From a phage: a DNA stretch of 64,000 nt. The stretch lies in assembly GCA_019385495.1 (NCBI GenBank), contig GCA_019385495.1_4102.1; one strand, 5' to 3'. A program made the position numbers and the translations under genes. Each line of letters starts with the position of its first letter. Position 1 is the stretch's first letter. The notes below the pieces were generated by a model. That model saw nothing but the letters and a program-made list of their open reading frames with translations, did not search any database and was not told where the DNA came from. Below, in pieces: positions 62,439-64,000 of the stretch.

Positions 62439-62466
62439 TTGACAATATAGAATGATGTGATACAAT
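62439..62466 (+). promoter_or_regulatory. sigma70-like promoter P1
   Basis: TTGACA-16 nt-TACAAT. Confidence 0.5.
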
Positions 62467-62533
62467 AAGCATCAGACATAAAGTTTTCAAGCGACACAAG
62501 ATGTGAGTTTGAAAAAAAAAGAAAAAAAGTGAT

Positions 62534-62561
62534 TGACAAGTTGAAACGATGTGATATAATG
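62534..62561 (+). promoter_or_regulatory. sigma70-like promoter P2
   Basis: TTGACA-16 nt-TATAAT; shares GATGTGATA upstream of -10 with P1. Confidence 0.55.
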
Positions 62562-62659
62562 TTCACATCAAGACAGCAAAGAGATTTACCTTTTAAACAC
62601 ACGGATGATTCATGAAGTAACAAAGGAACTGATAAGTTAAATTATTTTAACACAGTTCC

Positions 62660-62688
62660 TTTACTTTTGCCCACGGATTGGCTATAAT
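62660..62688 (+). promoter_or_regulatory. sigma70-like promoter P3 (weaker -35)
   Basis: TTTACT-17 nt-TATAAT. Confidence 0.35.
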
Positions 62689-62729
62689 AGAAACTTAAAC
62701 GATTTTATCCAACAAAAGGAAATATATAC

Positions 62730-64000
62730 ATGACTACTCAAAACGATATCCTGAACGTTAAACTGACTCCAAAGAAAGCTAAAGAAGCAATGGCACTAGC
62801 TGACATGATTCAAGATAGCCTGATGATTTGGGGTAGCCCAGGTATCGGTAAGTCTGCAATCGCTCGTCAATACGCTGATGAAAATTACCCACTGCGTAAA
62901 GATAACGTAGCTAAAATCGAGTTCATGAAACAACAAATCGAAGCTGACCCTGAAAATGCTGATCAGCTACGCCGTGAACTGGCTGCATTTGAAGCAAAAC
63001 TAATCGACCAAGATACTAACTTTATCGATTTCCGTTTGTCTCAAATCGAACCAAGTGACCTTCGCGGTATTCCAGTACCAGAGAAGCTTTTCCGTAAAAC
63101 TGACGGTTCTCTTCTGAAAGAATCTGAGCTTGCCGAAGCAAAAGATTATGTAGCTGAAACTGCGGTAGTATGGGCTGCACCTAAAGTTCTGAAATTGTCC
63201 GAAGATTGGAAAGGTGTTATTCTGTTTGACGAAATTAACTCTGCAATGCCTATTGTTCAGGCAGCGTCTTATCAGCTAATCCTCGACCGTTGTGTTGGTG
63301 AGATGAAGCTACCTAAGACTGCACTGATTCTTGCAGCAGGTAACCGTGAAACTGATGGCGGTGTAACTTTCTCTCTTGCTACACCACTGCGTGACCGTAT
63401 GACTCACATTGAGATGATTCCTTATCATCAAGATTGGATTAACGATTATGCGATTGCAAAACGTTTGAACCCAGCAACTGTTGCGTTCATCAACAACACT
63501 GGTTCTAAGTACTTTAACACACTTAGTCCACAAGATCCTTCTCACAGTGGTGGTACTTCTCCACGTTCATGGGAAGCAGTAGCACGCTACGAAGATCTCA
63601 AGAAAACTAAGACAATTGATAAAGAAGTGTTCCGTGCAATGATTGCTGGTCGTGTTGGTGAAGGTGTTGCAACTGAATACATTGAGTACGTTGAGAACGT
63701 TGCTAAACTACCAGATACTATGTCTATTCTGTCTGGTGAAATCAAAGAAATCGACGCAACGCTGGATATTTCTGCGAACTACTTTATCACTCTGAACTTG
63801 GTTTATAAAATTATCGACCTGTTCAATGAGAAGCAAGAACAACGTCTACCAGTGGAAGAATGGGGTAAACTGTGTAACAACTTCATCACCTTCCTAGACC
63901 ATAACTTCTCTGCAACTCAAGCAGAACTGGCAGTACTGGCAATTCGTACCATCACGCTTCATAAGGTTGCGATTTCCATTAAAGATGTACCAGCGTTTAA
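62730..64000 (+). CDS. AAA+ ATPase (AAA_5/MoxR-like), 5' partial, runs off window
   Basis: Walker A GSPGIGKS, Walker B ILFDEIN; open to window end; host-like codon usage; AAAAGGA RBS. Confidence 0.6.
   Translation, partial: MTTQNDILNVKLTPKKAKEAMALADMIQDSLMIWGSPGIGKSAIARQYADENYPLRKDNVAKIEFMKQQIEADPENADQLRRELAAFEAKLIDQDTNFIDFRLSQIEPSDLRGIPVPEKLFRKTDGSLLKESELAEAKDYVAETAVVWAAPKVLKLSEDWKGVILFDEINSAMPIVQAASYQLILDRCVGEMKLPKTALILAAGNRETDGGVTFSLATPLRDRMTHIEMIPYHQDWINDYAIAKRLNPATVAFINNTGSKYFNTLSPQDPSHSGGTSPRSWEAVARYEDLKKTKTIDKEVFRAMIAGRVGEGVATEYIEYVENVAKLPDTMSILSGEIKEIDATLDISANYFITLNLVYKIIDLFNEKQEQRLPVEEWGKLCNNFITFLDHNFSATQAELAVLAIRTITLHKVAISIKDVPAF

Follow-up and report, generated by a model that had tools for sequence, protein, structure and literature searches.

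A conserved terminator-like leader and tandem promoters precede a MoxR-class ATPase gene in a 121Q-like jumbo phage

We analyzed the region around gene gp563, which encodes a AAA+ ATPase of the MoxR class, in a 64,000-nt stretch of phage DNA (contig GCA_019385495.1_4102.1; hereafter the window, whose numbering is used unless another sequence is named). The 315-bp spacer between the stop codon of the preceding gene, gp562, and the ATG of gp563 holds three sigma70-like promoters (P1, P2 and P3) and a leader with a conserved hairpin resembling an intrinsic terminator. This cassette is a real, well-built expression unit for the ATPase, and its make-up suggests strong but gated expression. With modest confidence, we regard the spacer as the control region of gp563 and, by read-through, of the downstream gene gp564, built as an attenuator-like gated cassette. 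Positions 62000-64000 are 99.9% identical to positions 273597-275597 of Escherichia phage 121Q and similarly close to about 20 other Asteriusvirus jumbo phages; by this identity, the source of the window is a 121Q/PBECO4-like Asteriusvirus jumbo phage.

Promoters upstream of gp563

The following promoter elements were found in the spacer:

62419-62438, plus strand: A/T-rich, UP-like tract upstream of P1; an A-rich tract is found here in all Asteriusvirus and RaK2-like relatives
62439-62466, plus strand: P1, TTGACA-16-TACAAT with an extended -10 (TGa); -35 at 62439-62444, 16-nt spacer, TG at 62458-59, -10 at 62461-62466; 11/12 matches to the sigma70 consensus; hexamers invariant in nine aligned relatives
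62470-62478, plus strand: CATCAGACA box downstream of P1, near the inferred transcription start; similar to the ACATCAAG box of phage early-region promoters
62512-62528, plus strand: A-tract, UP-like element of P2; its length differs among relatives, and the junction of a 95-bp duplication in phage SP27 lies here
62533-62560, plus strand: P2, TTGACA-16-TATAAT with an extended -10; -35 at 62533-62538, 16-nt spacer, TG at 62552-53, -10 at 62555-62560; 12/12 matches; tandem duplicate of P1
62565-62576, plus strand: ACATCAAGACAG box, inferred 5' end of the P2 RNA; the same box (ACATCAAGAC) follows 121Q early-region promoters, for example at 141402
62660-62688, plus strand: P3, weaker, TTTACT-17-TATAAT; 10/12 matches; the -35 (62660-62665) overlaps the U-tract of the leader hairpin, the spacer contains a second hairpin, and the -10 lies at 62683-62688

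A preliminary description of this DNA had listed two near-consensus promoters with 16-nt spacers, an A-tract and a third, weaker promoter, all of which are present; GATGTGATA, reported as common to the first two, occurs exactly at 62454-62462 in P1 and at 62548-62556 in P2. Transcription starts were inferred to lie about 7 nt downstream of the -10 hexamers. The pattern TTGACA-N15-18-TANAAT has four sites in the 64-kb window (1.05 expected), and two of the four lie within the 315-bp spacer, 94 bp apart. A TGAAACG in the P2 spacer was considered as a sign of the divergent promoter type known from phage CBB and rejected, since it sits 6 nt, not 16, from the -10; that promoter class is nearly absent from 121Q intergenic DNA (2 sites). 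A third copy of GATGTGA (caaGATGTGAGtttga), which has no -10 hexamer and is kept in Asteriusvirus, lies between P1 and P2 at 62500-62512 and may be a decayed promoter copy.

The promoters were compared in an alignment of nine relatives that included the Klebsiella phages RaK2 and Muenster (Alcyoneusvirus). The TTGACA and -10 positions of P1 are invariant in 9/9 relatives, RaK2 and Muenster included, while spacer and flanks vary. P2, whose duplicated unit takes in the first transcribed bases, is found in all Asteriusvirus relatives and is absent from RaK2 and Muenster. In phage SP27 (L003:1516-1928) a further 95-bp tandem duplication, with its junction in the A-tract, has produced a third promoter copy and a leader up to ACACACGGA; promoter copy number therefore differs among phages that are more than 99% identical. 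P3 is kept in Asteriusvirus, its RaK2 version has TATCAT, and no equivalent was found in the GAP32-like, Eneladusvirus or L023-25 leaders. The more distant relatives (GAP32, Erwinia Eneladusvirus and three uncultivated IMG/VR clades) have one promoter-like site only, located upstream of the hairpin. The promoter of the gp563 homologue in GAP32-like and Erwinia phages is of the TGAAACG-N16-TGgTATAAT type, described as divergent RpoD-like in the CBB paper (PMC5259590), and CATTAAGACAG lies downstream of the promoter of the Erwinia-phage homologue. Judged from this distribution, P1 is the ancestral promoter of the cassette and P2 and P3 are lineage-specific additions. The three tandem promoters described earlier thus all exist, but they do not go back to an ancestral triple promoter.

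For genome-wide scans of promoters and codons, a genome of 348,532 bp was rebuilt from the window and pieces of 121Q. It contains 116 sigma70 sites with at least 11/12 matches. Most of them are intergenic and fall into two clusters, 50-112 kb and 134-162 kb, where small genes form arrays; the structural half of the genome has only about 12 intergenic sites that reach 11/12. The traits of this family are an A-rich tract upstream, a TACATCAAG box located a few bases past the -10 and, in very many cases, a 16-nt spacer. P2 (gttcACATCAAGACag) and P1 (aagCATCAGACa) show the same spacer, A-rich tract and ACATCAA box. CATCA or ATCAA occurs within 16 nt past the -10 in 21 of 81 intergenic strong promoters, compared with a background of 4.3%. 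If the CBB analysis and T4 are taken as analogues, the family is probably the early class read by the host polymerase. A position weight matrix built from 14 early-region promoters ranked P1 82nd and P2 67th genome-wide; this matrix was overfitted to the AGTACTG spacer and penalized a 1-nt shift in the register of the ACATCAA box.

Related arrangements of promoters and hairpins were seen elsewhere. The 134-155 kb region of 121Q (L014:34000-50000, L015:1-5000) contains about 30 near-identical promoters, each upstream of a small gene and each made up of TTGACA and TATAAT, separated by a 16-nt spacer with the palindrome-containing AGTACTG at its end, an A-rich tract before them and a TACATCAAG box after them; the small genes of this array include many of the ORFs (open reading frames) with the most host-like codons in the genome. 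At 32207-32282 of the window, a perfect TTGACA-17-TATAAT directly follows the preceding stop codon, and one base further on stands a terminator hairpin, AGAGAACTTC-atat-GGAGTTCTCT with T7, followed by a Shine-Dalgarno (SD) sequence and an ATG at 32280. With a start about 7 nt past the -10, inside the 5' arm, RNA from this promoter would escape the terminator, which would act on upstream transcripts. The module GGGTTGACTTCGGTCAGCCC-TTTTTG-yTATAAT occurs four times in 121Q, at 98698, 109279, 110561 and 112729 (L013:48698; L014:9279, 10561 and 12729), with the -35 hexamer inside the stem of a terminator-like hairpin and the -10 past the T-run; these modules appear to be overlapping terminator/promoter units. 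In the homologous locus of Vibrio phage 2.275.O (L039:1270-1450), the spacer upstream of the ATPase gene contains two copies of a unit of about 33 bp (GTGTTATAACAATATGTAAGCAGTTAAGCGCA) in addition to two hairpins; it has no sequence relation to the 121Q leader, yet it is duplicated too.

A conserved terminator-like hairpin and GGA motifs in the leader

The leader and the gene that follows contain these features:

62597-62608, plus strand: GGA box 1, ACACACGGATGA, single-stranded and upstream of hairpin 1; A(Y)GGA(W) in 15/16 distinct leaders
62622-62668, plus strand: hairpin 1 with U-tract (TTTACTTTT), intrinsic-terminator-like; -15.2 kcal/mol; paired in 20/20 distinct leaders
62670-62682, plus strand: hairpin 2, a mini-hairpin of 3-5 bp with a cGGAt loop; the GGA is invariant in the alignment and the stem covaries
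62716-62722, plus strand: SD sequence AAGGAAA, 7 nt upstream of the ATG at 62730; invariant in Asteriusvirus and RaK2
62730-64000, plus strand: 5' part of the gene for the MoxR-class AAA+ ATPase, 1271 nt and 423 of 441 codons; the stop codon lies outside the window

The leader set comprises 20 distinct sequences; they represent at least five clades, and the identity of their ATPases falls to as low as 54%. Throughout this set both hairpins are located between promoter and start codon, and all 20 leaders have a U-rich tract downstream of hairpin 1, followed by hairpin 2. In the leader alignment 91-92% of cells were paired, with a covariation score of 0.29-0.30 compared with 0.10 in shuffled alignments (reached in 0/500) and at most 0.155 in slid registers. 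Helix 1 was 94% paired, with four pairs changed on both sides, and the compensatory variants of its stem included GGAACTG/CAGTTCC, GGACTG/CAGTCC, GACACTG/CAGTGTC, GCACTGA/TCAGTGC and GCACTGG/CCAGTGC. The hairpin 2 stem occurred as CCAA/TTGG, CTTA/TAAG, CTCA/TGAG, CAAA/TTTG and CAGA/TCTG. A covariance model scored 64 bits at this locus and at most 29 bits in the rest of the genome, where the matches were ordinary terminators, showing that the element is single-copy.

The leader had previously been described as carrying a hairpin with a 9-bp stem. The hairpin is there, but its lower stem has 10 bp (62622-62631 with 62653-62662) and is topped by a 6-bp upper stem, and it stands between P1/P2 and the gene as a conserved element that resembles a terminator. 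It has the form of an intrinsic terminator, a stable G+C-containing stem-loop with a U-rich tract directly after it. The GenBank record of phage G17 annotates it as an ARNOLD terminator, and our promoter/terminator scan called the equivalent hairpins in GAP32 and L027, which have the canonical form with U-tract, terminator-like. On the evidence of the alignment, hairpin 1 is a conserved, covarying intrinsic-terminator-like element and not an incidental leader hairpin.

RNAs starting at P1 and P2 contain the whole predicted terminator and would therefore be either read through or ended as RNAs of about 196 nt (P1) and 102 nt (P2), as counted from the inferred start sites. Hairpin 2 lies beyond the terminator, so that it would act only in read-through RNA, and its covariation at this position points to selection on that RNA. 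The sole promoter-like site of GAP32, L023 and L027 is located upstream of the hairpin, and none was found between the hairpin and the ATG, which would make the read-through RNA the ancestral mRNA. We favor this reading, in which the terminator would serve as a leader attenuator. No alternative antiterminator fold appeared in the minimum free energy or centroid folds. A leader peptide was rejected, because conservation is lacking for the ATG in or near GGATGA and the length of the ORF ranges from 2 to 35 codons; an RNase III site was likewise rejected, the stem in GAP32-like phages being too short (10 bp).

The GGA motifs were compared with binding sites of CsrA/RsmA. GGA box 1 matches 9/12 positions of the CsrA SELEX consensus RUACARGGAUGU (PMC7652899; motif comparison). 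Hairpin 2 fits the rule for CsrA/RsmA sites of a GGA in the loop of a short hairpin (up to about 4 bp); GAP32-like leaders fit less well. An Rfam scan of 62300-62800 gave nothing near any gathering score, and the non-coding RNAs in the PA5oct transcriptome paper map to unrelated loci. It is a rather doubtful possibility that RaK2-like jumbo phages have, in the leader with its GGA box, terminator hairpin, GGA-loop mini-hairpin and SD, a new cis-regulatory RNA for an RNA-binding protein to read, or that the terminated P1/P2 RNA is an abundant early phage small RNA that binds such a protein. Going by these motifs, the reader of the leader may be host CsrA/RsmA, which is common to all the hosts, or else a phage factor. 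If so, an RNA-binding protein would couple the most host-adapted gene of the phage to host physiology.

Codon usage of the ATPase gene

Codon choice in gp563 was compared with that of the host and of the rest of the genome. Its codon adaptation index (CAI) is 0.562, compared with 0.350±0.057 for 78 genes of the window, none of which is higher, and 0.345±0.075 genome-wide, where it ranks 3rd of 458 ORFs and 1st among those longer than 160 aa. The VWA gene gp564 has a CAI of 0.517 (8th of 458). CTG makes up 41% of the Leu codons in the ATPase gene and 6% in the rest of the genome, whereas TTA (Leu), AGA (Arg), GGA (Gly) and ATA (Ile) are all at 0%, compared with 34%, 24%, 23% and 21% in the rest of the genome, respectively. 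CGT (80% compared with 50% genome-wide) and GGT (89% compared with 62%) are enriched as well. The earlier suggestion of host-like codon choice, for which a comparison of adaptation with host and genome average had been proposed, was thus borne out by a clear difference for CTG, CGT and GGT; it did not hold for GAA, which shows no real difference (76% of Glu codons compared with 80% in the rest of the genome).

Codons served by phage tRNAs were pooled as GGA, TCA, TTA, ACA, AGA and ATA. Four of the six match tRNAs in the 121Q record (Gly-tcc, Ser-tga, Leu-taa and Thr-tgt); AGA was included on the basis of an Arg tRNA listed, in the part of the source available to us, with unspecified anticodon for the near-identical phage Sharanji, and ATA because one CAT tRNA was assumed to read it. 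These codons account for 0.9% of the ATPase gene compared with 11.0±4.6% genome-wide, the lowest value of the 458 ORFs. The G+C content at third codon positions (GC3) of the gene is 0.34, and no DNA match to it was found in 5,426 E. coli genomes; it follows that the bias is due to selection on translation, and a host origin of the gene was rejected. Among the homologues, those of RaK2 and Muenster have a CAI of 0.60, that of GAP32 0.38 and that of the Erwinia phage 0.41; for the hosts of the last two, the E. coli weights are an imperfect measure. High CAI accompanies the lineages with consensus promoters.

The ATPase and its VWA partner

The gene at 62730 corresponds to 121Q gp563, a protein of 441 aa annotated "ATPase", and to gp265c of phAPEC6. 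It had been read as a Walker A/B AAA+ ATPase, and both motifs were found: Walker A is GSPGIGKS at residues 35-42 and Walker B contains D167-E168. Walker A, Walker B, sensor 1 and the arginines of the AAA+ core are present; G35, G38, K41, S42, E168, N205, R223 and R279 are invariant in 33 homologues and D167 is at least 90% conserved. The protein matched PHROG 1297 "ATPase" at 8e-104, while the Pfam matches were marginal, with 16.7 bits for AAA_3 (PF07726; cut-off 27) and 15.6 for AAA_5 (PF07728; cut-off 22); homologues at about 30% identity do have AAA_3 and AAA_5 domains. Because sequence and profile searches of the PDB gave matches only at the level of Walker A, a fold search was required. 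An AlphaFold (AF2) model of the 423 aa encoded in the window (mean predicted local distance difference test score, pLDDT, 86) had NorQ (9qh4 and 9qh8; E about 4e-7) and CbbQ (6l1q) as its top Foldseek matches in the PDB, at a target-normalized template modeling score of about 0.6. By fold and homologues, gp563 is a MoxR-class AAA+ ATPase. PADLOC matched neither the ATPase nor the VWA protein to a defence system, and a search of NCBIfam gave nothing useful.

The partner gp564 contains DUF2201_N, a putative metallopeptidase domain (2.7e-34), and the VWA-like domain DUF2201 (7e-21). The ATPase-VWA synteny is kept in all relatives fetched. Homologues of the ATPase are found in 816 phage records, N4 gp24 among them, and over 800 phage records, from N4-like, rV5-like and jumbo phages among others, have the MoxR-VWA pair; GenBank annotators note homology to N4 gp24 and gp25.

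Between gp563 and gp564, just past the window (L001:10074-10110), lies a terminator hairpin with a T-run (-18.6 kcal/mol). Such a hairpin is found between the two genes in four genera, with equivalents of differing sequence in RaK2, Muenster, GAP32 and the Erwinia phage, and a third terminator hairpin is located downstream of the VWA gene. In 121Q a mini-hairpin, TAAGT-gggaca-ACTTA, follows this terminator after gp564 (L001:11563-11612), and the equivalent place in GAP32 (L019:4225-4258) has a hairpin with a UAUGGAUG loop; GGA-type loops are thus present at both ends of the operon.

A model for the cassette and alternative explanations

Sequence features with their conservation and covariation, codon statistics and fold class are what was observed; promoter activity, termination and read-through, timing and stoichiometry are predictions of the gated-cassette model. 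P1 and P2, near-perfect promoters of the host sigma70 type with UP-like A-tracts, would fire into the conserved leader, and the gene would be reached only by transcripts passing the terminator, which would make the leader an attenuator-like gate. P3, directly downstream of the terminator, would bypass this gate. In the lineages of E. coli and Klebsiella phages, promoter duplication, the P3 bypass, a strong SD and codon optimization would all raise output. Together with the avoidance of phage-tRNA codons, these changes suggest selection for high ATPase output by the unmodified host machinery, and promoter type and tRNA independence place this output most plausibly from early in infection onward. 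The preliminary reading of the locus as a strongly expressed early transcription unit at a late/early boundary is thus supported in part. The terminator between gp563 and gp564 would set the ATPase above the VWA protein in amount, so that probably more ATPase than VWA protein is made, as expected for a hexamer with a single partner. In the solved MoxR-VWA complexes, NorQD and CbbQO, there is one hexamer per single partner.

Several points weigh against this model. The local promoter/terminator scan did not call hairpin 1 of the window a terminator, because its loop is longer than 8 nt and its T-run is interrupted. Conversely, with -15 kcal/mol and a U-tract, hairpin 1 could stop most P1/P2 transcripts and leave mainly a short RNA. 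The CAI weights were taken from 30 ribosomal-protein and elongation-factor genes of E. coli K-12, and the genome-wide ORFs were called mechanically (ATG starts only, at least 80 aa, greedy removal of overlaps). For this phage group, the literature searched offered neither mapped RNA ends (5' or 3') nor time courses or reporter data. Iyer et al. (2021; PMC7824862) described the MoxR-vWA-metallopeptidase pair in group 2.2 jumbo phages and proposed that it has a role in virion assembly, and CsCl-purified virions of phAPEC6, which is 99.9% identical at the gp563 locus, yielded 6 peptides of the ATPase gp265c (19% coverage; PMC7247149); both would agree better with late than with early expression. 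The virion list of phAPEC6 does not contain the VWA partner gp264c (PMC7247149). The detection of the ATPase shows that it is made in appreciable amount, in keeping either with abundance or with genuine association with the virion.

Possible, although we consider it improbable, is that P1/P2 and hairpin 1 form a separate short transcription unit that yields abundant non-coding RNAs of about 102 nt (P2) and 196 nt (P1), with the ATPase expressed from P3 or a nearer promoter with only a -10. Such an RNA, composed of a conserved 5' box, the single-stranded ACAcGGAUG and the terminator hairpin, would have a trans-acting role, such as base-pairing or the binding of an RNA-binding protein. The order from promoter to terminator and their short distance, about 35-45 nt up to the hairpin in GAP32-like phages, are indeed kept in at least five clades, the terminators of GAP32 and L027 are canonical with U-tract, and both the 5' box CAT(C/T)AAGACAG and GGA box 1 are conserved. 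Asteriusvirus moreover has the separate P3 just past the terminator, and TATAAY-like hexamers lie 23-41 nt upstream of the ATG in several clades. However, the covariation of hairpin 2 downstream of the terminator indicates that the read-through RNA is selected, GAP32, L023 and L027 offer no promoter-like site between hairpin and ATG, nothing in Rfam matches, and the length of the 5' part is poorly conserved, RaK2 and Asteriusvirus having extra sequence.

Less probable again is that hairpin 1 is the plain terminator of the upstream late virion operon gp552-gp562, with promoters between stop codon and terminator by chance; there would be no gating, and the ATPase would be an assembly chaperone made mainly late, from read-through and P3. 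Hairpins right before the next SD are common in the genome (for example at 32237-32266, 34068-34098 and 47892-47918 of the window), and more distant homologues with unrelated leaders (L040, L041) also have a terminator-like hairpin before the ATPase gene; the proposed assembly role and the presence of the ATPase in virion preparations agree with this explanation too. This explanation accounts neither for a promoter retained upstream of the terminator in each clade nor for one or two rounds of P1 duplication, and it gives no reason for the conserved hairpin 2 and GGA boxes or for an avoidance of phage-tRNA codons that exceeds that of any structural gene. That the hexamers arose by chance in an AT-rich spacer and the codon bias by recent acquisition from the host is very improbable: the local scan found 24 promoter-like matches in 4 kb of this AT-rich DNA (12.3 expected), but invariant hexamers with varying spacers in two genera already contradict it, as do the synteny of the gene in all RaK2-like phages, its GC3 and the lack of a match in E. 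coli genomes.

Genomic setting

Upstream of gp563 lie the virion genes gp552-gp561 and the conserved hypothetical gene gp562, which ends at 62414, in agreement with the end of the structural block placed there earlier. Downstream follow gp564, three small or unknown genes, a thymidylate synthase gene and then virion genes on the opposite strand. With virion genes on both flanks, the locus is therefore a small non-structural island within the structural half of the genome. A minus-strand ORF at 62426-62623 (65 aa) was rejected as spurious; it covers the A-tracts, which vary by insertion and deletion, and the 95-bp insertion of SP27. From the same island, the thymidylate synthase gp259c and gp262c, the homologue of 121Q gp566, were also detected in purified phAPEC6 virions (PMC7247149, Table 1), where they may be abundant contaminants or packaged proteins.

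Significance and comparison with known systems

Two elements of the locus were already known, the MoxR-vWA-metallopeptidase pair (Iyer et al., 2021; PMC7824862) and the ARNOLD terminator mark in the G17 record. In E. coli and Klebsiella jumbo phages, gp563 has the strongest host-type promoters of the virion-gene half, it depends least of all genes on phage tRNAs, and its terminator-containing leader is kept across genera. These features argue for an abundant product of the unmodified host machinery, which fits poorly with the sole published proposal, a late virion-assembly chaperone. In addition, the locus documents how local duplication changes the number of promoter copies, of which near-identical phages have one, two or three.

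The T7 promoters A1, A2 and A3 and the early promoters of T5 and T4 are strong coliphage promoters that are read by host RNA polymerase without phage factors. The gp563 promoters are like them in forming a row of near-consensus sigma70 promoters with A-rich UP-like tracts and extended -10 elements. They differ in that P1 and P2 lie in the virion-gene half of a 348-kb genome and would serve one small operon, and in that they stem from a recent local duplication of 94-95 bp and would fire into a terminator.

The leader terminators and attenuators of trp, pyrBI and lambda tR1 share with the 121Q leader an intrinsic-terminator-like hairpin between promoter and coding sequence, so that read-through is needed. 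Unlike these systems, the 121Q leader showed no alternative pairing for an antiterminator, no leader peptide and no known site for a ligand or protein.

P1 and P2 also fit the RpoD-like class predicted for the RaK2-like phages CBB and GAP32, UP-like element included (PMC5259590), but here the same gene has different promoter classes in different genera. That study describes neither the gp563 locus nor its leader.

Leaders regulated by CsrA/RsmA combine a high-affinity GGA hairpin with a GGA overlapping the SD (PMC7652899). The putative sites in the phage leader are similar in the GGA in the loop of a 3-5-bp hairpin, in the ACAcGGAUG box and, in E. coli and Klebsiella phages, in an SD that contains GGA; GAP32-like leaders, in contrast, have no GGA in the SD and no ACA in box 1. 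Four GGA triplets in about 165 nt are just modestly above expectation.

Compared with the MoxR/VWA pairs NorQ-NorD, CbbQ-CbbO, RavA-ViaA, N4 gp24-gp25 and that of group 2.2 jumbo phages (PMC7824862), gp563 differs in a helical insertion of about 40 residues past Walker A and in Pfam AAA_3 and AAA_5 scores below threshold. It is like them in its fold, which is nearest to NorQ and CbbQ, and in its pairing with gp564, a VWA-like protein with DUF2201_N.

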